The notes under the pieces were generated by a model. It was not told the origin of the DNA. It searched no databases and was given only the letters and a program-made list of their open reading frames with translations. Of a stretch of DNA of 64,000 nt, positions 14,057-64,000 are shown in pieces (the first letter of the stretch is position 1; every line of letters begins with the position of its first letter). The DNA is from Deltaproteobacteria bacterium (GTDB taxonomy: Bacteria > Myxococcota_A > UBA9160 > SZUA-336): the NCBI GenBank assembly GCA_031396695.1, contig JANNLG010000056.1, positions 3,853-67,852 of the forward strand, in the 5' to 3' direction. A program made the translations under genes and the position numbers.

Positions 14057-14120
14057 GCGGGGCCGCGGTGGTGGAGGGAGCCGCTGCGGTTTCGCACGTA
14101 TCGTTTGAGAGGGGAATGCT

Positions 14121-17100: not shown

Positions 17101-19625
17101 TCCTGACACGCGGATTCCTGGCGATCGAACCGCTTGCGCGGCAGGACCAAGCCTACCAGGACCTCGGCTTGAGCCTTCAAAACGCCTCGGCTGCATTGCT
17201 GGGTTGCGGTGTGGCCTACGCCTCGCCCTGCAGCGGCGCGCAGCAGACGCAATGGGCCCGCGACCCGGCGATCGCCGCAGATCTGACGCGCGACCCGACG
17301 CTCGGTCCAGCCACGGTCGGCGGCATCGACTTGATGAATGCGGACGCGAGCGTCGTCACCCAGGAGTTCGTCGGCCTGAAGGCGCTCTCACCAGGCGCGC
17401 TGGTTGGAACGCGGCTCAACAACGCTGGCGCACTCTACTACCAGCCGGGGGTCAACTTCAGCCGCGACGGCCAGCAGGACATGAACATCGACGAGGACTT
17501 CAGTCGACAGGGTCGCGAGCTCAACCCGCCGATTGCAGTTTCGGCGCTCGAGAGCTCGGGCGAGTACCTGAACTTGACCCCCGACGACGTCATCGACCTG
17601 GGTGTGCAGGGCCGCGCGGAGTACCAGATCCAAGCCGGCAACATCCTCGAAGCGGATAGCTGGGTCGAGCCGATGCCGTGGACGGTCAACGAGGAGCTGC
17701 TCGAAAAGTACGGCGCGATCGTGTTCAACGCCGATCCGAGCAACGTGCTCGATCTCGATAGCCCGCTGAACAAATGGAACTTGATCGATCCGAACCAGGA
17801 CCCGAACGACCTCGCGAACATCCAGTACTCGGACATCGACGGCGAGTACTGCGCGCGCTGGATGAACTCGACGGACACGGACATCTCCACGCCGTTCAAC
17901 CTCGGGTGCACCGCGCTCGAGACGGTCTCGGCGAACTTCGAGCGGCTGCTGATCAGCATCGAGGAAATCGGCTTCGACCGTGTGTTCGACGCGCCTGAGA
18001 GCCTTCAGGAACTCGGCTACTGGTCGGAGTCGAACACCGCGCGCCAGGCCGCCGGCGATCCGGTCTCGGGTTCCGACGGAATCTACGCGCGCAATCAGTT
18101 CGTGATCTCGAGCGAGCAGATGGATTTCGACGTGGTCGCCGCCGCGCCCACGGGCGATTCGACTTTCATTTTCGTGGACATCGCCGCGAGCGAGACTCCG
18201 CAGCAAGCCGCCGCGCGAACGCTGCTCGAGTTTGATCCCCAGGAAGGGTGTCTGAGCGCGTTCTGCTACCTGCAGGTCAACAACGTCCTGGTCGATCCCG
18301 ACGACGCCGCTCCGGAGGGCCGCGACTTGATCCTCGCGATGCCGGTCGGCTTCACGGTCGACATCATGTCGCCGATCGTGGATCCGAACGACCCGAATGG
18401 CCCAGTCAACCCCAACGATCCGAATCAGCAGTTCGAGAACACCGGCTTCGACCGCAAGGTGAACCCGGCCGCGCTCCAGTACCTGCAGCAGACGGCGGGC
18501 GACACTTCGCTGCGGCGCCTGCTCGCGTCGCAGGTGATCGCGGTCGAGACGCCGACCGGCATCGAGTACGTGCAGATGAGCAACGAGCAGCGCGATCAGC
18601 TGCTCGGAGAGCTCGGCGACGCGCTCAACCGCGGTCGCGACATGGACGGCGACGGCAGCTCGGATCTCGACCGCAACCGCGACTCGGTCTGGGACGGGAT
18701 CGACGACTACAGCGGCGGTGGACCGATCACCGACGACAACATCCTGTGCGGCACCGGCATCCCCGGCGATCCACTCCAGGACGGCGTTCAGTACAGCCCG
18801 TTCCGCAGGGACCAGGACATGAACTCCGAGGCCTTCCGGGCGATGTTCCCGAACGGTCTGCCCCCGCGTTCGCCGGTGTTCTGCCGCGGCGTGTCGGGCA
18901 TCCTCAGCGCCACCAACCAGACGCTGCCGATTCGCAAGGCGGGCGGCGACGGCCGCTACGGCCGCCGCGACTTCCTGTGGCAGAACGGACGCCAGGTCGC
19001 GTTCAACTACCAGAAGCGGAACGTCATGGGCTTCGGTCTCGACTTCGCGGAAGACGTCACGAAGACGAGCTGGGGTCTGGAGTTCTCGTGGATGGCGAAC
19101 AAGCTGCTGCCGAACAACTTCGAGTACGACGGCTATTCGCAGACCGACGAGATGGTGCTGTCGATCTCCGTCGACCGGCCAACCTTCTTCAACTTCCTGA
19201 ACCCGAACCGCAGCTTCTTCATGAACCTGCAGATGTTCCTGCGCTACCTGCCCGACTACGAGGGCGGCCGTGGCGGCAACGACGGCATGTACGGCGCTGC
19301 GGGCGCATCGCTCACCGGCAACATCGCGTTCACTTTCTTCACCGGCTACTTCCAGGATCGCCTCGCGCCGCGCGTCACGATCCTGTACGCGCCGTGGGAG
19401 TCGCAGGGCGCGTTGCTCACGGGCCTGTCGTACCGCTGGAACGACGCGTTCTCGACCAGCATCGGCTGGACGCAGTTCTTCGGTCACATCTACAAGCAGC
19501 AGGGCGGATACTTCCCGATCGCCCAGTACGGCTCGGTCGCCGACTACAACGGACCGGTCCTGCGCGGCGTCGCGCCGGTCCTGTACCGAGACCAGGCCGA
19601 AGTCCGGATTCGCTACACCTGGTAA
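14121..19625 (+). CDS. Giant (1834 aa) secreted outer-membrane protein; DUF1302-like beta-barrel N- and C-terminal segments flanking an insert of over 1000 aa rich in Asp, Asn and Gly
   Basis: Signal peptide LLAALVLGVLLLGGGLARTASA. N-terminal FSIHGFYETRLMFVG resembles DUF1302 starts. The C-terminal roughly 300 aa show alternating-hydrophobic beta strands and end in ..VRIRYTW (aromatic terminal residue typical of outer-membrane barrels). The internal sequence carries DPNDPNGPVNPNDPN and DMDGDGSSDLDRNRDSVWDGIDD (thrombospondin-3-like calcium-binding motif). GAGAGGGG precedes the ATG. Confidence 0.75.
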   Translation: MRGRLTQGLLAALVLGVLLLGGGLARTASAFEWDLPGERKFSIHGFYETRLMFVGSELPINGATWSSFRHVLSTELELTLFPDGFGPFDSMFMFSRFLVSYDCIYTYSCGTFNSADSYGDDKRRAVRQPLSLREDAKNNAPYFAGLLKSTYRPGSIVSPQEVLNPSRRYRDCDNPPGVFANPFPLAVFCNLNSRSPLDNPNNQTGNKTWEVRAGTFHPFTRPSLTAAARSAIGNEEYDRLQGLLISGQVLSRSETAFRLTLLAEAGEAQARGDEDLAEALNAQADAVLGTPETTFDANIPALLATRPDPNRFAEYANSMTPALLKAKWGSGQLRNLVFPFLATINTPIAPGGYFNNGAPLDSIGQYDQALGETLSANLGGLPIVSDADGQPVFSASNAQNRVNPFFVGPDGLRDSADDLPFVTNNPAAQEAGYQLATPLQGAAGTPENLLASFDGTFGRNAPGNAARPIYAQAARIVVPSASDPSATKIVELYGVYSNEYLVNRGCGAVSGSYNTATGQCVRAGGDVSAEAQARGCSVIVRGTRGQQVNVGVNADGQCIEMNTTSPAPNSQLQFEVLGLLGDLNARPFEASIEPLNTTDFRAVAEGGVNNTMPARPRMAQQGIVYQSPGARREYEQYHDLVSNLDLKYSVDSLQWNHGASQREHEFAEGYVEFEMADSQLYARVGKLIVVWGKTELFRNQDRNNPLDIGNGIFAPLEEQRVGQWAVDLTISPEAFMRVGPVEDLRLELLTIVNPFEPTDLGKCGEGTAIELICLKSFGAMANGLAGIGVIGEHRPYDDYAGIERWDFGARIEGRFDRFTFAISDFWGWDDGFYLDLVQQYERTSDITTGAPLSVGSRGNSTGCTIRTNSEGEAVGPNNIAGDGDDDFPSAGNCLLWDPPETPDAAQLLRPTDSVAALQNVNQTLFHSLCAYTFDPDEGFCAFDRLNYPLEFGLISNIISGLGVLGAAVTDGVESIQQKRLDGRTSVVQRGSPTILTRGFLAIEPLARQDQAYQDLGLSLQNASAALLGCGVAYASPCSGAQQTQWARDPAIAADLTRDPTLGPATVGGIDLMNADASVVTQEFVGLKALSPGALVGTRLNNAGALYYQPGVNFSRDGQQDMNIDEDFSRQGRELNPPIAVSALESSGEYLNLTPDDVIDLGVQGRAEYQIQAGNILEADSWVEPMPWTVNEELLEKYGAIVFNADPSNVLDLDSPLNKWNLIDPNQDPNDLANIQYSDIDGEYCARWMNSTDTDISTPFNLGCTALETVSANFERLLISIEEIGFDRVFDAPESLQELGYWSESNTARQAAGDPVSGSDGIYARNQFVISSEQMDFDVVAAAPTGDSTFIFVDIAASETPQQAAARTLLEFDPQEGCLSAFCYLQVNNVLVDPDDAAPEGRDLILAMPVGFTVDIMSPIVDPNDPNGPVNPNDPNQQFENTGFDRKVNPAALQYLQQTAGDTSLRRLLASQVIAVETPTGIEYVQMSNEQRDQLLGELGDALNRGRDMDGDGSSDLDRNRDSVWDGIDDYSGGGPITDDNILCGTGIPGDPLQDGVQYSPFRRDQDMNSEAFRAMFPNGLPPRSPVFCRGVSGILSATNQTLPIRKAGGDGRYGRRDFLWQNGRQVAFNYQKRNVMGFGLDFAEDVTKTSWGLEFSWMANKLLPNNFEYDGYSQTDEMVLSISVDRPTFFNFLNPNRSFFMNLQMFLRYLPDYEGGRGGNDGMYGAAGASLTGNIAFTFFTGYFQDRLAPRVTILYAPWESQGALLTGLSYRWNDAFSTSIGWTQFFGHIYKQQGGYFPIAQYGSVADYNGPVLRGVAPVLYRDQAEVRIRYTW

Positions 19626-20327: not shown

Positions 20328-20401
20328 GGTCCCCGTACCCGCCTTCTAGAGGACGCAACTCCCCCATCAAGCCGCCGCCCGCGCGGGCCGATCCTCCGTT
20401 G

Positions 20402-21796
20402 ATGGACAAGCGGGTTCTGGTGGTCGACGACGACCGCTTGATACGCGAGATGACGCGCGATGCGCTCGTCCAGGAGGGCTTTCGCGTAGCCACCGCGGCG
20501 ACCGGCCGCGAGGCGCTGTCCCGGCTCGGCGACGAGGGTCCGTTCGACCTGGTGATCACGGACCTCTCCATGCGCGAGATGGACGGCTTGGAGCTGCTCG
20601 AGCGCGTGAAGCGCGCCTCGCCACGCACCGAGGTGATCGTGCTGACGGGCTACGCGTCGCTCGAGAGCGCGCTGCAGGCCATGCGCCTGGGCGCCGCCGA
20701 CTATCTGCGCAAGCCGGTGTCCGCGCCCGAGATTACGTACTGCGTGAAACGCACGCTCTTGCGCCGGCGGCTGATGGACGAGAACGAGGCGCTGCGCGGC
20801 TGCGTGCAGGCGTTCGAGGCCGCGCGCGCGCTGGCGTCGTGCCTGGAGAGTGGCGACGTGCTGCCGATGGCGCTCGACATCGTCCTGCGGCTGACCGGCC
20901 GCGGCCGCGCGGTGGGGCGACTGATCGAGCTGCCGTCGCGCACGGGCGAGGGCATCGAGCTGGTCGGCTTCCCCGCGGACACGCTGGCGGAGCTGCGCTC
21001 GCAGATCGAGCTCGGCAAGCTGTTCGATCCGGCCGAGCTCGAACGGCCGGGCATCTCGAGCGGCGACGCGCTAGCGGGCGCGCTCTCGACGCTCGGGCTC
21101 GAAGACCCGCAGCTCTTGCCGCTGCCGATCCGGCTCGAGGGACGCGTGGTTGGCGGGATCTGGATCTTCTCCGACGGGCGACCCTTCGACGCCGACGAGC
21201 GGCAGCGCGCCGAGCTCGTGGTCGAGCAGGCGGAGCTCGCGCTGATCAACGCCGAGCGTTTCCTGCAGGCGCGCGAGAAGGCGTTCATCGACGACGTCAC
21301 GTCGCTGTACAACGCGCGCTATCTGCTATCGGCGCTCGACCGCGAGGTGAACCGCGCCTCGCGTTCGCAGGCCAAGCTGTCGGTGCTGTTTCTCGATCTC
21401 GATCGCTTCAAGACCGTGAACGACCGCTTCGGTCACCTGGTCGGCTCGCGCGTGCTGCGTGAGCTGGGGGTGCTGCTGCAGGAGTCGGTGCGCGCGATCG
21501 ACACCGTGGGCCGCTACGGCGGCGACGAGTTCACCATCCTGCTCGTCGACACGGGCAAGGACGGCGCGCTCTCGGTGGCCGATCGCATCCGGCAATCGGT
21601 CGCCAACCACGTGTTCGGCGGCGAGCGCGGGCTCGACCTGCGGCTCACGATCTCCGTCGGCGTGTCCACCTTCCCGGCGCACGGAGACACGCGCGAGCGA
21701 CTGCTCGATCTGGCCGACAAGGCCATGTATCTGGCGAAGGCGCTCGGCCGCAATCACGTCTGCTCCGCCGACGATCTCTCCAACTCGCGCGGCTAG
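20402..21796 (+). CDS. Response-regulator receiver plus linker plus GGDEF diguanylate cyclase
   Basis: REC domain (VLVVDDDRLIREM...DLVITDLSMREMDG) and an intact GGDEF active site RYGGDEFTILL with upstream FLDLDRFKTVND. Confidence 0.85.
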   Translation: MDKRVLVVDDDRLIREMTRDALVQEGFRVATAATGREALSRLGDEGPFDLVITDLSMREMDGLELLERVKRASPRTEVIVLTGYASLESALQAMRLGAADYLRKPVSAPEITYCVKRTLLRRRLMDENEALRGCVQAFEAARALASCLESGDVLPMALDIVLRLTGRGRAVGRLIELPSRTGEGIELVGFPADTLAELRSQIELGKLFDPAELERPGISSGDALAGALSTLGLEDPQLLPLPIRLEGRVVGGIWIFSDGRPFDADERQRAELVVEQAELALINAERFLQAREKAFIDDVTSLYNARYLLSALDREVNRASRSQAKLSVLFLDLDRFKTVNDRFGHLVGSRVLRELGVLLQESVRAIDTVGRYGGDEFTILLVDTGKDGALSVADRIRQSVANHVFGGERGLDLRLTISVGVSTFPAHGDTRERLLDLADKAMYLAKALGRNHVCSADDLSNSRG

Positions 21797-40396: not shown

Positions 40397-41209
40397 TTGC
40401 GAATCCGTGACGCGCTCGGGCGCGAGCACGCGTTCGCGGCCCCGCCGCGCCGAATCGTCTCGCTCGTACCGTCGCTGACCGAGACGCTGTTCGCGCTGGG
40501 CGTGAACGAATCGCTCGCGGGCGTGACCGACTTCTGTGTCCACCCGGCCGACGGCGTCGCGTCGAAGGCGCGCGTCGGCGGCACCAAGAACCCGAACCTG
40601 GCGGCGATCCGCGCGCTCGCGCCCGACCTCGTGCTCGCGAACAAGGAAGAGAACCGACGCCGCGACGTCGAGGCGCTCGAGGCCGACGGCGTGCCGGTTT
40701 TCGTCACCTACGCGCGCACGGTGCTCGAGGCGGTCGACGAGATCCGGCTGCTGGGGCGCCTCTGCGCCAGCCCGGAGCGCGCTGCGAGCCTCGCCGCGGA
40801 GGTCGAGACCGAGCTCGCGCGCGCGGCCGCGCACAGAGCCGCCCGCGCGCCCACGGCCACGGTCGCGCTCGTCTGGCGCGAGCCGTTCATGGTGGTGGGC
40901 GGCGACACCTTCGCGCACGACTTGTTGCGCTGCTGCGGCGCGCGCAACCCGTTCGCCGATGCCGGCACGAGCCGCTATCCGCGCGTGGACCTGCGCGCGC
41001 TCGAAGCCGCGCAGCCCGAAGTCATCCTGCTGCCCACGGAGCCGTACGCGTTCGGCGAGCGCGATCGCGACGAGCTGCTGGCGCTCGACTGCCCCGCGTC
41101 GCGAGACGGACGCGTGCACGTGATCGAGGGCGAGCTCTTGTCCTGGTACGGCCCGCGCATGCCGCGCGCGCTGCGCACGATCGCGCGCTTGCTACTTCCA
41201 GGTGCCTGA
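40397..41209 (+). CDS. TroA/BtuF-like (class 8 periplasmic-binding-protein fold) substrate-binding protein without an obvious signal peptide
   Basis: ..RIVSLVPSLTETLFALGV..LAGVTDFCV..PDLVLAN.. matches the cobalamin/siderophore-binding helical-backbone receptor pattern. TTG start 30 nt after the ankyrin stop. Confidence 0.65.
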   Translation: MRIRDALGREHAFAAPPRRIVSLVPSLTETLFALGVNESLAGVTDFCVHPADGVASKARVGGTKNPNLAAIRALAPDLVLANKEENRRRDVEALEADGVPVFVTYARTVLEAVDEIRLLGRLCASPERAASLAAEVETELARAAAHRAARAPTATVALVWREPFMVVGGDTFAHDLLRCCGARNPFADAGTSRYPRVDLRALEAAQPEVILLPTEPYAFGERDRDELLALDCPASRDGRVHVIEGELLSWYGPRMPRALRTIARLLLPGA

Positions 41210-42253
41210 GCCGCCGAGCGCCGTGCCGCAGCTCGCGCAGAAACGTGCATCGGCCTCGTTCAGCGCTTTGCAGCTCGAGCAGGCCACGCTGGCGGCGCCC
41301 TGGCGCACGCCGCAGCGCGAGCAGAAGTTCGCACCGGCTGCGACCGCCGAGCCGCAGGCCACGCACTTCGGTGTCGCGGCCGCGGCCGAGCCGCCGCCGA
41401 GTGCGTTCGTCACGACACCCGCCATGCCCGCGCCGAGCCCGAGACCCGCGCCTGCGCCGACGCCCGCCGCCGCGAGGCCGGAGCCCCCGCCGCCGCCCGA
41501 GCCGGCCGCCTTCTCGAGGGCATTGGCCGCCTGGTAGCGCACGAACGAATCGAGCGAGCCGACCGCGGCCATGCCGCCGCGCTTGTCGATCATCTCCTGC
41601 ACGTGGTCCGGCGGGGAGATCGACATGATCTTGAAGTCCGCGAGCGTCACGCCGTACTTCTCGAAGTCCGAGATCAGCCGAGCCTGGATGCCGGCCGACA
41701 GCTCGACGTAGTACTGCGCGAGATCGAGGATCGTCGACAGGTGCGAGCCGAGGAAATCGGCCACCTGGTTGACGATGAAGCCACGGAAGAAGCCCTCGAC
41801 GGCCTCGCTCTTCAATTCCGGCAGAGTCCCGACGACGGTATTCAGGAACACCTGCGGGTTCGAGATCCGGAACGAGTACATGCCGAACGCGCGCAGCCGC
41901 ACCATCTGCAGCTCGCTGTCGCGGAACAGGATCGGCTCCATCGTGCCCCACTTCTGGTTCACGAACGTCTTCAGGTTCGTGAAGCAGACCTCGGCGCGGA
42001 AGGGGCTCTTGCCGCCCATCGGCAGCGAGAGGGCCTTCGTCAGCAGCGGGATGTTCAGCGTCGAGAGCGTGTGCCGGCCCGCGCGAAAGGTGTCGAGCGC
42101 GCGGCCGTCGCGGAAGAAGATCGCGGCCTGGCTCTCGCGCACCACGAGCTGCGCGCCCAGCTTGAGCTCGGCCGAGCCCGCTTCGGGAAAGCGCGACACG
42201 ATCGTGTCGGAGCTGCTGTCGAGACACTCGATGACTTCAATGAACTGCGACAT
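41192..42253 (-). CDS. SPFH/band-7 domain protein with a Gly/Ala-rich linker and a C-terminal double zinc ribbon (COG4260-like)
   Basis: SPFH core (..AIFFRDGRALDTFRAGRHTL..FRAEVCFTNLKTF..), a GGGGGSGLAAAGVGAGAG linker, then CVACGSAV..CSRCG and CSSCKAL..CASCG. GAGGTGAG precedes the ATG. Confidence 0.8.
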   Translation of the reverse strand: MSQFIEVIECLDSSSDTIVSRFPEAGSAELKLGAQLVVRESQAAIFFRDGRALDTFRAGRHTLSTLNIPLLTKALSLPMGGKSPFRAEVCFTNLKTFVNQKWGTMEPILFRDSELQMVRLRAFGMYSFRISNPQVFLNTVVGTLPELKSEAVEGFFRGFIVNQVADFLGSHLSTILDLAQYYVELSAGIQARLISDFEKYGVTLADFKIMSISPPDHVQEMIDKRGGMAAVGSLDSFVRYQAANALEKAAGSGGGGGSGLAAAGVGAGAGLGLGAGMAGVVTNALGGGSAAAATPKCVACGSAVAAGANFCSRCGVRQGAASVACSSCKALNEADARFCASCGTALGGSGTWK

Positions 42254-42256
42254 GAC

Positions 42257-42745
42257 TCACCTCGATCCCAGGCCCAGTATGGCGGTTCGCCGATCGGCGA
42301 GCGCCAGCCCGAGCCGCTTCACGACCGCGCGCACGGACGCGGCTTGGAATTCCACGTCCGCGACCTGCGCGGCGATCTGTTCGATCTGATCCACGATCCG
42401 CTCGTCCTTCTCGTAGACCGCGTCGAGCCGCGAAGAGGCGTCGAGCTTGACCTCGTCGAAGAAGCCCGAGTAGCCGCGATCCGCGTGGCGCAGCTCGGCG
42501 CGCAGCTTCTCCACGTCGTTCATCAGCTCGTGCAGGTCGTTCAGCTGATCGAGCGCGGAGTTGGCCGCGACCTCGTGCAGCTCGCGCACCACGCGCTCGA
42601 GCCGGGTCGCGCCGTGATCGCGCAGCAGCTTGTCGGCCTCGCGCCGCGCCTCGCGCTCCGCGTAGCCGCGAAAGCCGGGGATGCGCCCCACCAGGCGCTC
42701 GAGCGCGTTGCGCTGCTCGCGAATCGTCTCTTTGACTCTCGCCAT
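42257..42745 (-). CDS. Small (162 aa) predicted coiled-coil protein of unknown function
   Basis: It is the C-terminal portion of an overlong track ORF. Its own ATG is preceded by GGGAGG, and its stop is 3 nt from the SPFH start (likely translational coupling). Confidence 0.55.
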   Translation of the reverse strand: MARVKETIREQRNALERLVGRIPGFRGYAEREARREADKLLRDHGATRLERVVRELHEVAANSALDQLNDLHELMNDVEKLRAELRHADRGYSGFFDEVKLDASSRLDAVYEKDERIVDQIEQIAAQVADVEFQAASVRAVVKRLGLALADRRTAILGLGSR

Positions 42746-42852
42746 GGCTGGCCTCCCGTGCCCGTACGCGCCACGCGGGATCAGACGCGCGCGGCTGCAA
42801 GGCTGCTTCGGCGCGGCTCCGGAGCGGCTTGAGGCGAGCGCCGGCGCGCCCT

Positions 42853-44502
42853 TCAGGCCAGCGAGAAGGCCCGGGACAAGCGCGGCAGGCGGCCGTCGTC
42901 CGCCAATACCTCGAGCGGCACCGGGCGCATGCCGGGCGAGGCGGCCGCGGGATCCCCGCCCGCGTCGGCGGGGCACGGGAACCAGTGGCCGCCGAACAGC
43001 GCGAGCGGCAGCACCGTGAGCTGCGGGTCGCCGGCCTCGAGCTGCGCATCCATGACCAGCTTCTTGAAGCTCATCCCGTTCAAGCTGCGGGTACTTTGGG
43101 CGTCGTGCAGCGCCACCAGCGTGTAGCGCGCGAGCGCGACTGCCTCGCTGGGCTCGAGCTCGACGTCGAGCAGCCGGATCGCGTCGACGGACGATGCGCG
43201 CTCGACGCGCACGGGCGGCTGACGCCAGGTGGCGGTCGCGGCGAGCGCGCCGAACGCGTCGTCGAGCGGACGCGAGCCGAGCAGCGCGCGCGCGGGAATG
43301 AACAGGCGGCTCTGCGCGGGATCCTGCTCGCGGTAGCGCGTTGCGGCCGGCTGCGGTGCGACCGCCTCGAGCCAGTCCCAGACGCGCGTGAAGTCGCGAC
43401 CACCGGCGCGCACGCAAAAGGGCAGGGACCAGAACGGGAAGCCGATCAGCGCGTCGGGCCGCGGACCCTCGGGCATTGCGCCGAACGCGTAGGCGTAGCT
43501 CTCGAGCCCGTCCGGCGTGATCCGGATGCCGAGCGCGCAGCTCGCGCAGAACGCGATCTTCGCGCGTTTGGGGAGCGTGAGCGCCGCACCGCAGTTCGGG
43601 CACTCCGAGGCGAGCGCGCGCAGGCGCGGCTTCACCATCACGTCCGCGACCGCGCGCTCGGGCAGCGCGCGAAAAACCGCGGCCTCGTCGCCCGAGAGCT
43701 TGCCGGCGATCGTGTCGAACTGGCGGTCGACCAGATAGTCCTCGGCCGTGCCCGCGCGCCGCACGCGCGCCGCGCTCATGTGCTTCCAGATCGAGAGCCG
43801 GCGCTCCCGCACCACGCCGTCGATCTGCGTGATCACCTGCGCGCCGGTGTCGAGCTTGAAGCGCGCGCGGTCCGCGCGCAGGCCGACGCGGTTCGGTGTC
43901 GCGTCGGCGGATTCGAGGTAGCGGTTTCCGCCCCCCTGACGGTGTGCCTCGGCCAGCAGCTCGAGGCGCGAGCCGCGGATCTTCAAGCCACGGTCGCGCA
44001 GGTTCAGCCGCGCCGGGTCGTAGCGCCGGCGCAGGTCCTCCGTGCGGAAGCACTGCACGAAGCTCTCCTTCGCGGCGCCGCGCCGGCCGAGCACGCCCTG
44101 CACGACCGTGCGCTCGTGCAGCTCGTACGGCACCAGGAAGTCGATCGTGTCGACCGGCTCGAGCTCGGCCTCGAGCTTCGCGCGCAGGAGCGCCACGCGC
44201 GCCTCGATCAGCGCCGGGATCTCGAGCGAGAGTCCTTCCTGGTTCTTGGCGTTGCCGGTGAGCTCGTTGCGGTAGCTCTCGGTCTCGAAGCGGATCAGGA
44301 GCTCGACCACGTCGAGCACCGCACCCTGCTTCACGGTCGAGACGACGAACACCTCCTCGCCCAGCAGCCGGCCGCAGGCGAGCAGCGAGCCGCAGTAGGC
44401 GCAGGCGGCGGATTCGTCCCAGATCCCGACGACGATCGCGGCGCCACACTCCGGGCAGTGCAGCTCCACCTCGAGCGGTTCGGCGCCGTCGTCTTCCGCC
44501 AT
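42853..44502 (-). CDS. Hypothetical protein (549 aa) with two CxxC...CxxC zinc-ribbon motifs
   Basis: CPECG..CAYCG at the N-terminus and CPNCG..CASC mid-protein. Composition is protein-like, unlike the overlapping Arg/Ala-rich antisense ORFs. No clear SD sequence. Confidence 0.6.
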   Translation of the reverse strand: MAEDDGAEPLEVELHCPECGAAIVVGIWDESAACAYCGSLLACGRLLGEEVFVVSTVKQGAVLDVVELLIRFETESYRNELTGNAKNQEGLSLEIPALIEARVALLRAKLEAELEPVDTIDFLVPYELHERTVVQGVLGRRGAAKESFVQCFRTEDLRRRYDPARLNLRDRGLKIRGSRLELLAEAHRQGGGNRYLESADATPNRVGLRADRARFKLDTGAQVITQIDGVVRERRLSIWKHMSAARVRRAGTAEDYLVDRQFDTIAGKLSGDEAAVFRALPERAVADVMVKPRLRALASECPNCGAALTLPKRAKIAFCASCALGIRITPDGLESYAYAFGAMPEGPRPDALIGFPFWSLPFCVRAGGRDFTRVWDWLEAVAPQPAATRYREQDPAQSRLFIPARALLGSRPLDDAFGALAATATWRQPPVRVERASSVDAIRLLDVELEPSEAVALARYTLVALHDAQSTRSLNGMSFKKLVMDAQLEAGDPQLTVLPLALFGGHWFPCPADAGGDPAAASPGMRPVPLEVLADDGRLPRLSRAFSLA

Positions 44503-44553
44503 GGGGGAGGGATCGGAGAGGCGCTTCGAGTTCTTGCGGCCCGCCGCTCCAGC

Positions 44554-45609
44554 TCAGCGGTTGCGCTGCGCGGCGAGCGATTCGTAGCTGGGCTTGCCGT
44601 TCGCGTCCCACTCGCGGAACAGCTCGAAGAACTCCGGACCCATCGGGTTCTTGCCGCGAATCGGCATCGAGCCGCGCCGGATCGTCCAGTCGTTGGGCGA
44701 CAGCTCGCCCGCGCGCACGAAGTGGCGCTCGGCGGCTTCGACCTGACCCTGCTGGTGCAGGCGCCAGGCGAGCGAGAACTCCGCGCGTGCGAGCTCCTCG
44801 TCGGGCGTCGGCGGAACCGTGCGCTTCGCGATCTGTTCCGCAGGAACGTCGCTCTTCCCGCTCCGCACCCAGGCGCGCACGGCGGCGAGGAACGGCGCCG
44901 ACTCGCGGCCGTGGAACTGCTTGAACATGTCCGTGCCGTACTCCATCGCGCTTGGCCGCGCGATCCGGCCTGCCTCGTCGATGAACACCACCGTCGGCAC
45001 GTTGATCATCCCGTACAGGTGGGCGACGCGGTGTTCGGTGTCGATCAGGCTCGGATGCGTCGGCCGCGCCTTGTCGATGAACGGGCGCGCGTCGTCGGCC
45101 GACCTGTCCAGCGCGACCGTGACGGGCACGAAGCCGGAGTCGCCGAGCTCCTCGTACAGCGCCTGCCACACGGGCAGGTCCTCACGACAGCCTCACCAGG
45201 AGGCGTAGGCGACGAGCAGCACCTTCTTTCCGCGCAAGCCGCCGAGCGACCACTCCCGCCCCGTCAGATCGGGCAGGCGGAAGTCCGGCGCGATGCCCCC
45301 TTTCAGCACCTCGCCGCGCTCGCGGGCCGAGGCGCCCAGCGAGGCAATGCGCTCGTCGAGATCGAGCGCGAGCGGGCGCTGCAGGAGCTCGGCCAGCGCC
45401 TGGAGGTCGACCTTGCCGTCGGCGACCACACCCGCGCGGCCGGCGATCGGCACGCAAACGTCGCCGAGGCACAGGCCCTCGGGCTTCAGCACCCAGCCCA
45501 GCGACCGTTCGAGCGCGTTTGGGGAGAGCCGCACGCGACCGCCAGCGAGATCGGCCGCGACGGACGTCGCGCGGCCCTCGTCGAGAATCGTGAAGGGATG
45601 TTCGGCCAT
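44554..45609 (-). CDS. Thioredoxin-fold (TlpA/ResA/redoxin-like) selenoprotein, 351 codons, with an in-frame TGA (Sec) replacing the first active-site Cys (..LVAYASW-U-GCREDLP..)
   Basis: Track ORFs 45193..45750 and 44554..45171 are in the same frame, separated only by a TGA at 45193-45195 (complement). Their fused translation gives APDFRLPDLTGREWSLGGLRGKKVLLVAYASW-U-GCREDLPVWQALYEELGDSGFVPVTVALD..VPTVVFIDEAGRIA, collinear with TlpA (APDFTLPDLDGK..GKVVLVNFWASWCxPCRxE..). GAGGAGG lies 5 nt upstream of ATG 45609. Confidence 0.75.
45162..45178 (-). promoter_or_regulatory. SECIS-like hairpin 14 nt downstream of the UGA of the Trx-like selenoprotein
   Basis: CCUGCC-CGUGU-GGCAGG: a perfect 6-bp stem with a 5-nt loop containing G and U. 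Position matches a bacterial SECIS. Confidence 0.45.
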
Positions 45610-45792: not shown

Positions 45793-46716
45793 GTGAGTTT
45801 GACCGAGCGCCACTCCGCGGAGGTCGATCGGACGCTGCGCACCCGCGAAGGGCGCCAGATCGGCTTCGCCACCTTTGGCGACCCGGAAGGGGTGCCTGTC
45901 TTCTACTTCCACGGCTTGGCCAGCTCGCGGCTCGAGGGCGCGCTCGCACACCCGGTCGGCCTGCAGCGCAACGTGTGCCTGATTTCGCTCGACCGGCCGG
46001 GCTACGGCCTGTCCGACGCCCGGCCCGGGCACCGCATCCCCGACGTGGTCGACGACGTGGTCGCGGTCGCCGAAGCGCTCGGGATCGAGCAGTTCTCGCT
46101 GGTCAGCGTCTCGACCGGCGGCCCGTTCGCCCTGGCCACGGCGGCGAAGCTGCCCGAGCGCGTGCGCGCGGTCGCGCTGATCTCGAGCCCCGCGCCGTAC
46201 TCGGAGCGCTCCGGCCACGTCGGCATGGACATCCGCTCGCGCGCGATCCTGCTCTGGCTGCCGCGCTTCGCGCCCTGGCTGCTCGGCCCGATCTGGAACC
46301 GGCTCGCCGAGCTCTCGGACAGCGACCCCGCCGGACTCCTGCGTCTGATCGCCGACACCATGCCGAGCTCGGAGCGGCGCGCGATCAGCTCGCCGGAGAT
46401 CGCGGAGGTGTTCATGAACGCGTCGTACGAGGCCTTCCGCAGCGGCACGGGCGGCGTGGTCGCCGAGCAGCGCCTGCTGGCGCGCGACTGGGGCTTCGAC
46501 ATGAACGGCGTGCACGCGCCCGTCTGGCTCTGGCACGGCGAAGAGGACGGCTCGAGCCCGATCGCGATGGCGCACTGGCTGGTGGCGGCGCTGCCGAAGT
46601 GCCAGGCGCAGTTCCTGCCCGGACGCGGCGCGATCGTCGCCGGCGACGTGCTGCCGTTCGCGATCGCGACGCTGGCGGACTACTGGAAGGCGAGCGCTTC
46701 GGAGCGCGAGCGCTGA
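45793..46716 (+). CDS. Alpha/beta-fold hydrolase
   Basis: ..VFYFHGLASSRLEG.. and the nucleophile elbow LVSVSTGG (GxSxG). GTG at 45793 or TTG at 45799. Confidence 0.75.
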   Translation: MSLTERHSAEVDRTLRTREGRQIGFATFGDPEGVPVFYFHGLASSRLEGALAHPVGLQRNVCLISLDRPGYGLSDARPGHRIPDVVDDVVAVAEALGIEQFSLVSVSTGGPFALATAAKLPERVRAVALISSPAPYSERSGHVGMDIRSRAILLWLPRFAPWLLGPIWNRLAELSDSDPAGLLRLIADTMPSSERRAISSPEIAEVFMNASYEAFRSGTGGVVAEQRLLARDWGFDMNGVHAPVWLWHGEEDGSSPIAMAHWLVAALPKCQAQFLPGRGAIVAGDVLPFAIATLADYWKASASERER

Positions 46717-46717
46717 T

Positions 46718-47860
46718 TCACTCCGCGGGGTCGAGGATCGACTTGAAGCCCGACGGCGCGTGCGCACCGATCACGAGCTGCTCGAACGTTCCGTAGCCGA
46801 TGCGCGTGCCCGCGCGCACGCGGCAGAGCTGCTGCACGTGCAGGTTCCACGGCTCCATCGGATTCAGCTCGGACGGGCGGAACACCGCGCCGCTGGTCGC
46901 GTCGTCGCCCTTCCACATGCCGTGGCCGAACGCAGGATCGCCGTAGCCGATGCCGCGCATCTGGAACGTGAGCAGCGGCTCGAGCTCGAGCTTGTGCGGT
47001 TCGCCATCCCTGGGGATCAGCGTGAGCGTTGCGGCGCGCGCGCGCCGCGTGCCTTTCTCCCACTGCACCGATCGGTGTAGGGACGCCATGTCCTCGATGG
47101 GCGCGCCGGACGCGAGCAGCGGCACGACCGCCGCGTGCGCCGCGAGAGCAACGCCGGTCTCGTCCTCGTTGACCTGGAAGTGCGTGCAGTGGTCGTCGAA
47201 GTGGATCGGCGCCCACAGCCAGTAGAACTGCGGCAGCGGGCCGGGCGCGCCGGTCGCTTCGCGCTCGCCGACCGGACGCACGCCCCAGGAGCGGTCACGC
47301 GTGCCGAGCACGTGACTCGCGTCGAGCTTGATGCGCTCGGCGCCGACGGCGAGCCAGCCCTCCCAGGTGCCGAATTGCGTGAAGCGGGTGGAGTCCAGCC
47401 ACGCGCGCCCGTTCTGGCGCAGCGTGAGGCGCGGCTCTTCGAGCGCCTCCGTGCGCGCGCGAAACAAAAGCTCGCCTTCCAGCCCGTGCTCGTTCGGCGC
47501 GATCGTGAGACGCACGGCGCGCATGGGCTCCAGCACCTCGATCGAGATCGGCCCCGCCTTCGTGTCGGTGCGCTCGCTCGGCGCGAGCCGCGAGCCGCGC
47601 ACCACGTACTGCATTCCGTCGCGCACGACGGAGACGGCCGCGTCCATCACGCGCCGGTTCGGGTACACGCCGAGCGCCGCGCCGAAGAACAGATCCGCCT
47701 CGCGCGTGAAGCCGTTGAACCAGTAGCGGTCGTAGGCGTTGCGATCGCCGGTCAGCGTGTGCGCGACGGGCTCGGGCGTCTGGTGGATCGGGTAGTCGTC
47801 GAGCCGGTTCAGCACGTCGGCACCGTCCACGCATGCGCGACGGGCAGCACTTCCGCGCAC
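46718..47860 (-). CDS. Hypothetical protein (about 380 aa), function unknown
   Basis: Protein-like composition with no recognisable motif. The exact start is unclear; it overlaps the LLM gene end by about 50 nt in the track. Confidence 0.5.
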   Translation of the reverse strand: MRGSAARRACVDGADVLNRLDDYPIHQTPEPVAHTLTGDRNAYDRYWFNGFTREADLFFGAALGVYPNRRVMDAAVSVVRDGMQYVVRGSRLAPSERTDTKAGPISIEVLEPMRAVRLTIAPNEHGLEGELLFRARTEALEEPRLTLRQNGRAWLDSTRFTQFGTWEGWLAVGAERIKLDASHVLGTRDRSWGVRPVGEREATGAPGPLPQFYWLWAPIHFDDHCTHFQVNEDETGVALAAHAAVVPLLASGAPIEDMASLHRSVQWEKGTRRARAATLTLIPRDGEPHKLELEPLLTFQMRGIGYGDPAFGHGMWKGDDATSGAVFRPSELNPMEPWNLHVQQLCRVRAGTRIGYGTFEQLVIGAHAPSGFKSILDPAE

Positions 47861-58677: not shown

Positions 58678-58722
58678 CGCGCGTCACTCCTCAACGCGCG
58701 CGGCCGAAAAGCCGATTCGGAA

Positions 58723-60006
58723 ATGGGTCCGTTCGAGGTCGGCAACCGCATGAGCGAGAGCACGAGCCAGAGGAGTCCATTGGCGTCCATCGGTGACCTG
58801 TACGCCGAAATCTGCGCGGAGTTCTCCCGCCAGGGAGCGCTCGGGGTGCTCTACGTCGACTGTTCGACGCTCGACGAGGTCGAGCGCGGCTACGGCGAGA
58901 ACGCGCACGCGGGTGCGCTCGCGGCGGTGGCGGAGATCGTCGCCGGCGCGTGTCTGGAAGTGCTCGGCCGGCGCGAGCCGGTGGCGCGCGGCGAGGCCGG
59001 TCGCGGCGAGGTGTTCTGTTTCATCGCGCGCGAGCCGCGCGACGTCGACTTCCTGGCCAAGGGCCTGCCTGCGCTCGAGCGCGCGGTGCGCGAGCGGTTG
59101 GCGCGAAACGCGCAACGTGTCGCGTACCCGTACCTGCGCAAGATTCCGAGCCTGCCGATCGGCAGCGCGTTCGTGCAGCGCAACCCGATCGTCTCGCCGC
59201 TCTCGCAGCTGCGGCTGGGCATGGACCAGTCGCGCGACGACGCGCGCCTGAACGCGCAGCTCACGCGTCGGTCGCGGCGGCGCGAGTTCCTGGACGTGCT
59301 GATCCGCGGCCGGCTGCACTCGGTCTACGAGCCGGTGGTCGACGCGAAGTCGCTGACCGTGTTCGGCTACGAGGCGCTGGTGCGAGGCGACGAGGGCGGA
59401 CCGTTCGGCTCGCCCGCGGAGCTGTTCGGGATCGCGGCCGAGGAAGGACTTTTGTTCGAGCTCGACTGTCAGTGTAGGCGCGCGGCGGTCGAGGGCGCGA
59501 TCGACTTTCCGGAAGGCGCGAAGCTGTTCATGAACATCCGCCCGACCGCGATCCACGACCCGAGCTTCCAGCCCGACGCGCTCACCCGCACCCTCGAGCA
59601 CTGCGGCCTGTCGCCCGCGGAGGTGGTGTTCGAGATCTCCGAGCAGGAGTCGATCGAGAACTACGACATCTTCCGCGAGGCGCGCGACAACTACGGCAAG
59701 CTCGGCTTCCAGTTCGCGCTCGACGACACCGGCGCGGGCTACGCGAGCCTCGAAGCGGTGATGGAGCTCGCGCCCGAGTTCATCAAGGTCGACCGCGCGT
59801 TCGTGCGCGGCATCGACCAGGACGCCGCGCGTCAGAACATGGTGCGCGCGTTCCAGACCATCGCCAGCGACATGAACTCGCGCATCATCGGCGAGGGGCT
59901 CGACACGCTCGAAGAGCTGCGGATGCTCGGGCAGATGGGGATTCAGTTCGGGCAGGGCTGGCTGTTCGGAAAGCCCTCTCCGCTGCGCGCCGACGGCGGC
60001 TCGTAG
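58723..60006 (+). CDS. EAL-domain c-di-GMP phosphodiesterase with an N-terminal degenerate GGDEF-like domain
   Basis: EAL signature (..FGYEALVRGDEGG..) plus downstream DDTGAGYAS and QGWLFGKP motifs. The N-terminal region has a degenerate GGDEF-like pattern (RGEAGRGEVFCFIA). Confidence 0.8.
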   Translation: MGPFEVGNRMSESTSQRSPLASIGDLYAEICAEFSRQGALGVLYVDCSTLDEVERGYGENAHAGALAAVAEIVAGACLEVLGRREPVARGEAGRGEVFCFIAREPRDVDFLAKGLPALERAVRERLARNAQRVAYPYLRKIPSLPIGSAFVQRNPIVSPLSQLRLGMDQSRDDARLNAQLTRRSRRREFLDVLIRGRLHSVYEPVVDAKSLTVFGYEALVRGDEGGPFGSPAELFGIAAEEGLLFELDCQCRRAAVEGAIDFPEGAKLFMNIRPTAIHDPSFQPDALTRTLEHCGLSPAEVVFEISEQESIENYDIFREARDNYGKLGFQFALDDTGAGYASLEAVMELAPEFIKVDRAFVRGIDQDAARQNMVRAFQTIASDMNSRIIGEGLDTLEELRMLGQMGIQFGQGWLFGKPSPLRADGGS

Positions 60007-61871: not shown

Positions 61872-61924
61872 CGTAGCCAAAGACGTTGCTTGACGGGTCC
61901 GGAGCCCGGGCCGAAGGTAGACCG

Positions 61925-64000
61925 ATGCTGTGCGCGCGGTGCGGGACGGAGCTCCTGCCGGGAAAGAAGTTCTGCCACGCGTGTGGCGTCGCCGCGGCGG
62001 CGGCCTGCGCGTCGTGCGGCGCGCGCATCGACCCGAGCTGGCGCTTCTGTCCCGAGTGCGGGCGCCCGATCGGCGAGGCCGCGAAGCGGATCGTGGAGCC
62101 AGCGACCGCGGCCACGGGGTCTGCTTCCGCACCGGCTCCCATTCCCGCGAATGCGCCGATCGCGCGCATAGCGGAATCCATTCCCGAGCCGCTCGCGGCG
62201 CGCATCCGCTCCTCGGGCGCGGTCGCCGGCGAGCGCAAGCGGGCGACGGTCTTCTTCTGCGATCTGGTCGGCTCGACCGCGCTCGCGGAGCGGCTCGATC
62301 CCGAGGTCTACCGCGAGCTGCTCGATCGCTACCTGGAGCTGGTGTTCGCAGAGATCTACCGCTTCGAGGGGATCGTGAACCAGCTCGCGGGCGACGGGCT
62401 GATGGCGCTGTTCGGCGCGCCGATCGCGCATGAGGATGCGCCCGAACGCGCGGTGCGCGCGGCGCTCGCGATCCAGACCTCGCTCGGCGAGCTCTCCAAG
62501 CGCCTGCTCGCGGAGCGCGGCGTCGCCTTGCGCGCGCGCGTCGGCATCCACACCGGGATCGTGGTGGCGGGCACGGTCGGCAACGACCTGAAGATGGACT
62601 ACACCGCGATCGGCGACACCACGAATCTGGCCGCGCGGCTGCAGTCGCTCGCGGCGCCGGGCACGATCATGGTGTCCGAAGCGACGCACGCGCTGCTGCG
62701 CGGCGGTTTCCGCACCGCGCCGCTCGGTCCGTTCGACGTGAAGGGCAAGCGCGAGCCGGTCTCGGCGCACCAGGTGCTCGGCCTGGCCGAGCGCGCGCCG
62801 GCGTTCAGCGGCGAACGAGGCGAGCTGACGCCGCTGTTCGGTCGCGAAGCGGAGCTCGCGCAGCTCGAGGGTTGCTTCGATCGACTCGAGACGGGGCTGG
62901 CGCAGGTGGTGTCGATCGTCGGCGATGCGGGCATCGGCAAGTCGCGACTCGTGCACGAGCTGAAGAAGCGTCTCTCCGGGCGCGAGTTCGAACTGCTCGA
63001 GACGCGCTGTTCGTCGCTGACGCGCTCGGTGCCGTACGCGCCCTGGACGGCGATGCTGCGCGGTTGGTTCGGCGTCACCTCTGCCGACGACGAGCGCTGC
63101 GCGTGCGAGAAGATCGGCAAGCGGCTGGAGAATGCGGAAGGGACGAGCGACTCGGACTACTCGGATCTGTGTTGGATGCTCGCGCTGCCCGTCGAGGCCA
63201 AGGCCGATGCCGAGCACCAGCCGGCGACTCCGCACGGCTTCGCGGCTGTCTCGCGTCTGATCGAGCGCACCTCGCGGCGAGTGCCGGTGGTGATGATCAT
63301 CGAGGATTTGCACTGGCTCGACGACGCGTCGCGCGAGGTGCTCGAGAAAGCGGTCGCACACGCGGGTGGGGCGAGGCTGATGATCGTCACGACGCACCGC
63401 CCCGAGCACAAGCCGCACTGGCAGCCGAACGGCGCGTTCACGCAGCTGCGCCTGCGGCCGCTCGGCGAGCTCGACGCAGGCAAGATCGTGCGCGCGCGCG
63501 CGGGTGGCGTGGTGCCGCGCGAGGTCGAAGAGCGCATCCTGCGCAAGGCCGACGGCAATCCGTTCTACCTCGAGGAGCTGACCCGAACGCTGGTCGAGGA
63601 CGGCACGCTGGTCGCGCGCGACGGACAGGTCGTGGTGACGCGCCGCTCCGAGGAGATCCGGATTCCGGACACGATCGGCGAGGTGCTCGGCGCGCGCATC
63701 GACCGGCTGCGACCGGCCGCGAAGCGCGTGGCGCAGGTCGCGTCCGTGCTCGGGCGACAGTTCCATCGCAGGCACCTCCAGGTCCTGCTCGAGCCCGAGT
63801 CGATCGACGTCCTGGCCGAGCTCGCTGAGCTCGAGCGCCGCGGCGTGCTGCACCGAAACGGCGGAATGGCGACCGACGAGTTCCGCTTCGGCGAGAGCCT
63901 GACGCAGGAGGTCGCGTACGAGGGCCTGCTCCTGCGCGAGCGCAGGTCGCTGCACGACCGCGTGGCGGCGATGCTCGAGGCGGAGAGCCGCGACCCGACA
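61925..64000 (+). CDS. Class III adenylate/guanylate cyclase fused to a STAND/AAA ATPase, with an N-terminal double zinc ribbon (5' part; continues beyond the window)
   Basis: Hand translation: MLCARCGTELLPGKKFCHACG..CASCGARIDPSWRFCPECG; cyclase motifs ATVFFCDLVGSTA and GDGLMALFGAP; P-loop SIVGDAGIGKS. Not in the ORF track because there is no stop before the window end. Confidence 0.8.
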   Translation, partial: MLCARCGTELLPGKKFCHACGVAAAAACASCGARIDPSWRFCPECGRPIGEAAKRIVEPATAATGSASAPAPIPANAPIARIAESIPEPLAARIRSSGAVAGERKRATVFFCDLVGSTALAERLDPEVYRELLDRYLELVFAEIYRFEGIVNQLAGDGLMALFGAPIAHEDAPERAVRAALAIQTSLGELSKRLLAERGVALRARVGIHTGIVVAGTVGNDLKMDYTAIGDTTNLAARLQSLAAPGTIMVSEATHALLRGGFRTAPLGPFDVKGKREPVSAHQVLGLAERAPAFSGERGELTPLFGREAELAQLEGCFDRLETGLAQVVSIVGDAGIGKSRLVHELKKRLSGREFELLETRCSSLTRSVPYAPWTAMLRGWFGVTSADDERCACEKIGKRLENAEGTSDSDYSDLCWMLALPVEAKADAEHQPATPHGFAAVSRLIERTSRRVPVVMIIEDLHWLDDASREVLEKAVAHAGGARLMIVTTHRPEHKPHWQPNGAFTQLRLRPLGELDAGKIVRARAGGVVPREVEERILRKADGNPFYLEELTRTLVEDGTLVARDGQVVVTRRSEEIRIPDTIGEVLGARIDRLRPAAKRVAQVASVLGRQFHRRHLQVLLEPESIDVLAELAELERRGVLHRNGGMATDEFRFGESLTQEVAYEGLLLRERRSLHDRVAAMLEAESRDPT

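Follow-up and report, generated by a model that had tools for sequence, protein, structure and literature searches.

The 64,000-nucleotide (nt) stretch of DNA analyzed here (the window; G+C ~70%), from contig JANNLG010000056.1 of a Deltaproteobacteria bacterium (assembly GCA_031396695.1), contains four adjacent minus-strand genes, termed g1 to g4. Their products are a selenoprotein, a double zinc-ribbon protein, a small helical protein and an SPFH-domain protein with zinc ribbons. The initial annotation of the sequence had identified the four products in this way and had placed the genes in series, 51, 107 and 3 nt apart; the identities hold, and coordinates and gaps are exact. The genes are as follows:

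45609..44554, minus strand: g1, 351 amino acids (aa), with an in-frame UGA at 45195..45193
44502..42853, minus strand: g2, 549 aa
42745..42257, minus strand: g3, 162 aa
42253..41192, minus strand: g4, 353 aa, beginning 3 nt past the g3 stop codon

G+C content at third codon positions (GC3) was 0.89–0.93 across g1–g4, including both sides of the g1 UGA, and dropped to 0.64 upstream of the g1 ATG. The cluster is bounded upstream by a divergent alpha/beta-hydrolase gene and downstream by a Peripla_BP_2 gene, which is convergent with g4 and overlaps its end; it therefore comprises four genes at most. Scanning of the cluster for promoters and intrinsic terminators revealed no sigma-70 promoter and no terminator-like hairpin within it, and tRNA and Rfam scans of the 64-kb window gave no matches. 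Good Shine-Dalgarno sequences, earlier ascribed to all of the downstream genes, were found for g3 (GGGAGG) and g4 (GAGGTGA) but not for g2, whose start (ccctcccccATG) has no recognizable one. A transmembrane (TM) segment was predicted in none of the four proteins (highest Kyte–Doolittle 19-residue mean, 1.55). CxxC zinc ribbons had been assigned to three of the four products. They are present in g2 and g4 only; g3 is free of cysteine, and the cysteines of g1 do not form a ribbon.

The order and tight spacing of g2, g3 and g4 were identical in all 25 loci found to carry the triad. These comprise 15 loci from a g2 profile scan of GTDB species representatives, two contigs from exact look-up, seven metagenome contigs and the window itself. 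All 25 belong to uncultured Myxococcota, the 15 profile-derived loci all being Myxococcota or 'Deltaproteobacteria' metagenome-assembled genomes. The g2 protein has a 100% identical NCBI entry and an 85% identical counterpart in 'Myxococcota bacterium LejiaD_71_22'. Across the triad loci the lowest identities were 40% for g2, 43% for g3 and 56% for g4. The most conserved gene of the trio is g4 (56–93%), and its SPFH product is the conserved hub. The 3-nt gap at the g3–g4 junction, where translational coupling had been suggested, is likewise kept in relatives. We consider it highly probable that g2-g3-g4 is a genuine unit.

Conservation of g3-g4 extends beyond the triad. More distant g3 relatives (30–39% identity, 170–180 aa) lie directly upstream of a Band_7_1 (SPFH) gene without any g2. 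Eighty metagenome loci retrieved with a g3 profile, together with four others, included 71 with enough downstream sequence to be evaluated. In 67 of these a Band_7_1 homologue of g4 follows immediately on the same strand, at g3 identities of 31% to 94%, and g3 is accordingly predicted, from gene neighborhoods, to be a near-obligate partner of the SPFH gene. Conservation is nested: g3-g4 is the most widely kept, followed by g2 and then by g1. As the pair recurs in loci without g2, g3-g4 is the ancestral core, with g2 added clade-specifically and g1 as a recent neighbor.

The g4 protein matches the Pfam model Band_7_1 (PF13421) over model positions 2–210 of 211 (190 bits, cutoff 24; E 5.2e-56). 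Beyond the Band_7_1 domain (residues 20–229) come a linker rich in Gly and Ala and then a pair of zinc ribbons (residues 297–342) with cysteines C297/300/311/314 and C325/328/339/342, which were also matched by Pfam Zn_ribbon_3, DZR and Zn_Ribbon_1. The linker holds the highest hydropathy value (1.47). The initial annotation had described g4 as an SPFH membrane scaffold: the SPFH assignment stands, whereas the membrane part is carried over from the family, no TM segment being predicted. Given this lack of a TM segment, the low-complexity stretch and the C-terminal zinc ribbon, g4 has the predicted characteristics of a cytosolic SPFH protein of the YdjI/SamI type. Comparison with PDB sequences gave no match.

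The small partner g3 is a four-helix bundle. It carries two invariant motifs: IPGFRGY..R.RR.AD..LR precedes helix 1, and GYSGFF connects helices 2 and 3. The helix topology would place both motifs at the same end of the bundle. An exhaustive profile search returned 1,943 clusters at 50% identity (E<=1e-3), 1,137 of them at E<=1e-10. Almost all are of 160–180 aa, and their cluster names and taxonomy were almost uninformative. No Pfam or NCBIfam model covers the family: 26 members scanned at E<=1 gave no consistent family, no PspA and no Snf7. NfeD was matched by neither g2 nor g3, and g3 had no match in plasmids.

Fusions of the g3 domain were found with a Ser/Thr kinase (N-terminal; P0198, Chloroflexota NWF70684.1), with an N-terminal zinc ribbon (P0301) and with DUF4178 (P0323), a family reported in PspA-polyamine operons (PMC11237479). 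In ~30 loci (L032–L084; for example L040, 3003–3383) the gene immediately upstream of g3-g4 encodes a CheY-like single-domain response regulator. The fusions and these adjoining receiver genes point to a signaling link of the g3 domain. The same ~30 loci carry, further upstream, a related open reading frame (ORF) of ~158 aa and lpxB, encoding lipid-A disaccharide synthase. Upstream of g3-g4 in ~10 loci are genes for a flavin adenine dinucleotide-dependent protein and a 250-aa protein of no named family.

The g2 protein is soluble and contains two CxxC...CxxC zinc ribbons (C16/19/34/37 and C301/304/319/322), each followed by an alpha/beta domain. The ribbons are conserved and many residues are invariant. 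Pfam, NCBIfam and PADLOC yielded no sequence family, the only hit being a weak Zn_Ribbon_TF match (E 0.0075), and the protein is well modeled yet without structural neighbors in the PDB. Internal duplication was rejected, as only the zinc ribbons of the two halves align. A relationship with DUF4178, tried because this family is fused to one g3 homologue, was likewise rejected, no relation being found.

A g2 relative of 29% identity is encoded at L003 (6001–10947; also L004 and L005), convergent with an M48 peptidase gene, a Band_7_1-HTH_17 gene and a gene for a 363-aa protein. The Band_7_1 protein at this locus has a C-terminal HTH_17 domain in place of zinc ribbons. With this relative lying beside Band_7_1, the g2–SPFH link extends beyond g3-containing loci. 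The 363-aa protein was compared with g3 and showed no relation to it.

A bipartite, promoter-like motif precedes both g2 and g3:

44512..44538, minus strand: CGCAAG-N15-TCCGAT, in the g1–g2 gap, with 9 nt between its end and the g2 ATG
42807..42833, minus strand: CTCAAG-N15-GCCGAA, in the g2–g3 spacer, 61 nt before the g3 ATG

Alignment of the g2–g3 spacers revealed CTCAAG-N15-(G/A)CCGAA in every one of the 25 triad loci, 8–61 nt before the g3 start, with no conservation of the N15 stretch or of the flanks. This g3-side form occurs once in the 64-kb window against an expectation of 0. The g2-side form, C(A/G)(A/G)G-N15-(G/T)CCGAT, ends 8–10 nt before the g2 start in the window (44536..44512) and in nine further loci (L001, L006, L007, L009, L014, L015, L017, L027 and L031). 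A relaxed version, CARG-N15-KCCGAW, matched 38 times across the triad loci (705,722 nt), and 35 of these matches are at the two positions upstream of g2 or g3; in the window it gave four matches against 1.35 expected.

A bipartite motif of fixed spacing with a free spacer has the look of a promoter for an alternative sigma factor of the extracytoplasmic function (ECF) type, and CAAG-N15-CCGA(A/T) is a candidate promoter of this kind. Its placement suggests that g2 and g3-g4 are co-regulated from separate transcription starts, with g1 outside. The distance of 9 nt between motif and ATG, together with the missing Shine-Dalgarno sequence, also suggests that the g2 mRNA is leaderless. No sigma-factor gene was detected in Pfam scans of GC3-filtered window ORFs. 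The conserved cis-element is a testable feature of these loci.

The only other well-placed match of the relaxed motif in the window lies on the plus strand, where CAAG-N15-GCCGAT at 20368..20392 ends 9 nt before the ATG (20402) of a REC-GGDEF response-regulator/diguanylate cyclase gene (site and gene, 20368–21796), the same spacing as at g2. This gene may be co-regulated with the SPFH trio.

The remaining gene, g1, encodes a protein of three parts: an N-terminal domain in which C47 and C52 are invariant, a thioredoxin fold with the active-site motif YASW-U-GC (U139-G-C141), and a C-terminal TPR-like domain. Two features within it bear on its decoding:

45193..45195, minus strand: in-frame UGA encoding selenocysteine (Sec), g1 residue 139, as judged from the coding signal on both sides, orthologues and cysteine-containing homologues
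45162..45178, minus strand: hairpin CCUGCC-CGUGU-GGCAGG resembling a selenocysteine insertion sequence (SECIS), beginning 17 nt after the U of the UGA, with G25-U26 in the loop

Pfam AhpC-TSA (E 3e-16) and Redoxin both matched g1. Against the NCBIfam model NF041054, 'ResA-like WAxxUGC motif-containing protein', it scored 269.8 bits (E 3.8e-80), below the curated equivalog cutoff of 300 for this family (WAxxUGC_long). Like the family, it is built of three parts, has its U-G-C active site within a thioredoxin fold of the ResA/TlpA kind and uses UGA for the Sec of the motif; it differs in its score and in having Y for the first W (YASWUGC). We regard g1 as a clear NF041054 homologue below the equivalog threshold.

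The UGA is retained in seven g1 orthologues of 70–100% identity, and GC3 is 0.89 on one side of it and 0.92 on the other. Uninterrupted homologues (43–61% identity) from Binatia, Gammaproteobacteria, Hyphomonadaceae and other Myxococcota have Cys at the Sec position, as WASW-C-GC or YASW-C-GC. The retained UGA, the coding signal flanking it and the Cys of the homologues together establish g1 as a true UGA-encoded selenoprotein, one half of a classic Sec/Cys pair. This pair is now documented for the WAxxUGC family, on which a literature search found no publications. Many database entries of 204–206 aa are fragments, called from an internal start past the UGA.

The SECIS-like hairpin, with a 6-bp GC stem 17–34 nt past the UGA, occurs in all seven Sec-form orthologues. 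Its stem is invariant and its loop is either CGUGU or GGUCU. Its folding energy was no better than that of shuffled sequences (z -0.64), the sequence being GC-rich, and the seven orthologues showed no compensatory changes or covariation; Rfam gave no match. The codons of a conserved LPxWQ peptide (CTG CCN NNN TGG CAG; LPVWQ in the window) produce the stem by themselves, and this peptide is kept in Cys-form homologues. The bases of the stem are thus also under coding constraint, and the hairpin may predate the use of Sec or be coincidental. Genes of the selenocysteine machinery were not found among the scanned window ORFs, and no tRNA was found in the window. At two further loci (L109, 1334–1468; L110, 649–1392) an AhpC-TSA/Redoxin gene beside a Sec-form g1 homologue is called as fragments of 44 and 199 aa; this split gene may be a second UGA-interrupted selenoprotein.

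Linkage of g1 to the trio is shallow. It lies upstream of g2 in four of ~18 loci (the window, L002, L006 and L007). Absence was scored only where at least 1.1 kb upstream of g2 was available, and on this basis g1 is missing from at least 14 triad loci, among them L001, L008–L015, L017, L018, L027 and L028. L013 lacks g1 although its g2 is 69% identical. The gene upstream of g2 is divergent in L008–L011 and L029, so that g2 is the first gene of the unit there. Conversely, no Band_7_1, g2 or g3 gene was found near g1 homologues in three Cys-form and three Sec-form loci (the latter at ~70% identity).

An alpha/beta-hydrolase gene (window 45877–46716, plus strand) is divergently paired with g1, an arrangement repeated in L002 (3816–4718) and L108 (3295–4434), and appears to be the real conserved neighbor of g1. 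The interval between it and a luciferase-like gene contains a gene at 46718–47860 (minus strand) whose coding signature is good and whose 380-aa product falls in no Pfam family. In L001 and L014, both without g1, the luciferase-like gene directly abuts g2. The gene for the 380-aa protein, the hydrolase gene and g1 thus look like a block that has been inserted or deleted. We conclude that g1 is a recent neighbor, acquired with the divergent hydrolase gene in one shallow sub-lineage, and lies outside the conserved unit.

On balance we lean towards the region holding two independent things: a stand-alone Sec thiol-disulfide oxidoreductase, g1, and an SPFH module, g2-g3-g4, with an inferred role in stress. 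The functional assignment of the trio to envelope or membrane stress or signaling is more tentative. A possible scheme is that translational coupling would keep g3 production in step with g4, to which g3 would bind as a stoichiometric adaptor or regulator, its invariant aromatic and basic loop motifs providing the docking surface. The g4 protein would oligomerize through its SPFH domain at the cytoplasmic face of the inner membrane, and g2 would dock on the same assembly as a Myxococcota-specific accessory. Induction of g2 and g3-g4 together could be achieved by the two copies of the CAAG-N15-CCGA(A/T) alternative-sigma promoter. The g4 assembly might then organize or signal a membrane or envelope stress response, after the manner of PspA recruitment by YdjI, using different partners. 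Contacts among g2, g3 and g4, promoter function, membrane association and the stress role are all presumptive elements of this scheme.

Several observations weigh against this reading. No trio protein has a TM segment or a clear amphipathic anchor. Pfam scans of GC3-filtered ORFs, from which short or atypical genes may escape, found no PspA, TPM or NfeD in the 64-kb window. No similarity to PspA or ESCRT-III was seen for g3, and g2 has no detectable similarity to anything. Instead of a promoter, the CAAG-N15-CCGA(A/T) motif could be the site of a regulator, and the 51-nt g1–g2 gap, lacking a terminator, would permit read-through from g1.

In an alternative reading, the SPFH ring would control access to a protease whose gene lies elsewhere, in the manner of HflK/C-FtsH or stomatin-NfeD, with g3 and g2 acting as substrate adaptors in quality control. 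Protease pairing is the best-established function of bacterial SPFH proteins (for the HflK/C cage, see PMC10936438), and the distant g2 relative does lie beside both Band_7_1 and an M48 peptidase. However, no protease gene is present in the 25 triad loci or among the recurrent g3-g4 neighbors, and neither the TM anchor nor the long coiled coil of HflK/C is found in Band_7_1 proteins. We judge this alternative to be unlikely.

Slightly less credible again is a cytosolic nucleic-acid or transcription module, in which the g2 and g4 ribbons bind DNA or RNA and the SPFH oligomer sequesters or releases a regulator. This would suit the lack of an encoded membrane anchor and the related locus at which Band_7_1 carries HTH_17 instead of ribbons. 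The YdjG ribbon also matches a TFIIB-type Pfam model that g2 matches weakly (E 0.0075), and loss of SamI leads to global transcriptional changes (bioRxiv 10.64898/2026.02.06.704340). Such zinc-ribbon matches are generic, however, the triad contains no helix-turn-helix domain, and YdjI is membrane-associated in vivo (PMC8581546).

The initial annotation had proposed a candidate four-gene operon that could form a membrane-associated redox or stress-sensing module, with the SPFH protein organizing zinc-ribbon partners and a selenol-based oxidoreductase. In such a module g1 would oxidize or reduce, at the SPFH scaffold, the cysteines in the ribbons of g2 and g4. The genes are indeed adjacent on one strand, with only 51 nt and no detected terminator between g1 and g2, and the arrangement is kept in the close relatives L002, L006 and L007. 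Zinc-thiolate redox switches are established, making zinc-ribbon cysteines plausible redox targets. The synteny check in related genomes nevertheless gave no conserved co-occurrence for g1. Since g1 rarely adjoins the trio, its homologues occur in unrelated contexts, a promoter-like motif sits between g1 and g2, and the unit begins at g2 in L008–L011, a selenol-SPFH redox module is unsupported. The divergent hydrolase gene, as the conserved neighbor of g1 in the window, L002 and L108, also argues against it. Synteny leaves such a module largely refuted and very improbable, and the tempting but wrong link between a selenoprotein and an SPFH scaffold is now corrected. Taken as a whole, the earlier observations were partly confirmed and their interpretation partly supported.

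An anti-phage or conflict role for the triad is equally improbable: small uncharacterized partners, zinc ribbons, the patchy distribution of g2 and the inclusion of SPFH proteins in some conflict-system surveys (PMC7159879) are outweighed by PADLOC matches at noise level only, stable chromosomal synteny with housekeeping genes across the lineage, and the lack of nuclease, NTPase or toxin-like domains and of plasmid matches.

Returning to the preferred reading of a separate g1 and an SPFH module, a broader version of it is a reasonable possibility, though one we hold with less conviction. The g3-g4 pair would be a widespread two-component SPFH system in which g3 links the SPFH oligomer to receivers and Ser/Thr kinases. 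The Myxococcota would have added the 549-aa g2, of a fold not seen in the PDB, all under an alternative-sigma promoter shared with the REC-GGDEF gene. If so, the shared promoter would tie SPFH scaffolds to cyclic di-GMP signaling.

Elsewhere in the window, a 1,838-codon ORF (14109–19625, plus strand) has a strong coding signature (GC3 0.89) and no Pfam match at E<=1e-5. A gene at 61877–64000 (plus strand), running past the window end, encodes an adenylate/guanylate cyclase domain and an AAA_16 (STAND-like) ATPase domain, with a double zinc ribbon at the N-terminus; an EAL-domain gene (58678–60006) lies just upstream of it. All-against-all clustering of flank ORFs gave, as its two largest clusters, artefacts of spurious high-GC ORFs, which were ignored.

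The closest known system to the trio is the Bacillus subtilis pspA-ydjGHI (samGHI) operon. YdjI is a soluble SPFH protein with a low-complexity stretch and a zinc finger; YdjG and YdjH bring it to the membrane. It is needed for PspA foci, and the operon is under sigma-W (PMC8581546; bioRxiv 10.64898/2026.02.06.704340). In architecture g4 matches YdjI/SamI, its Band-7 SPFH domain being soluble and accompanied by a low-complexity stretch and, at the C-terminus, zinc-ribbon sequence. Both systems also include a neighbor with two zinc ribbons followed by an alpha/beta domain, g2 here and YdjG (two ribbons; PMC11237479) there. The ECF factor sigma-W drives the B. subtilis operon; here an ECF-like motif stands before both putative transcription units, and control by an ECF factor may apply. 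In contrast to that operon, the cluster has no pspA, and none was found among the scanned ORFs of the 64-kb window; it has no equivalent of the TPM-domain protein YdjH, and the gene order differs. As compared by description, YdjG combines its two ribbons with an NTF2-like domain and a TM segment, whereas g2 has no TM segment. A four-helix-bundle partner of the g3 type does not feature in the descriptions of the B. subtilis operon that were consulted.

SPFH-NfeD and HflK/C-FtsH operons resemble the trio in pairing an SPFH protein with a tightly coupled small partner gene. The partner here is neither NfeD nor a protease, and g4 is without a membrane anchor or long coiled coil. SPFH proteins that combine a coiled coil with a zinc ribbon are also encoded in archaeal ESCRT loci (Makarova et al. 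2024, PMC10936438). These loci share with the trio the fusion of SPFH to a C-terminal zinc ribbon and the presence of zinc-ribbon partners in the operon; they differ in including ESCRT-III, Vps4 and adaptin-like genes, none of which occurs here. The initial annotation had stated that the combination of genes is not a described system; this holds for the combination, while the four-gene set is itself not one system.

The triad, and chiefly g3-g4, adds to the SPFH operons a variant whose two partner families lack a Pfam or NCBIfam model. One of these, g2, is a well-modeled protein without a structural relative in the PDB. To our knowledge, soluble YdjI-type SPFH proteins have been known from a single model operon. 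The ~1,900 g3 clusters, of which a literature search found no description, provide such proteins with a far more widespread partner set, of use to SPFH/PspA specialists and for annotation.

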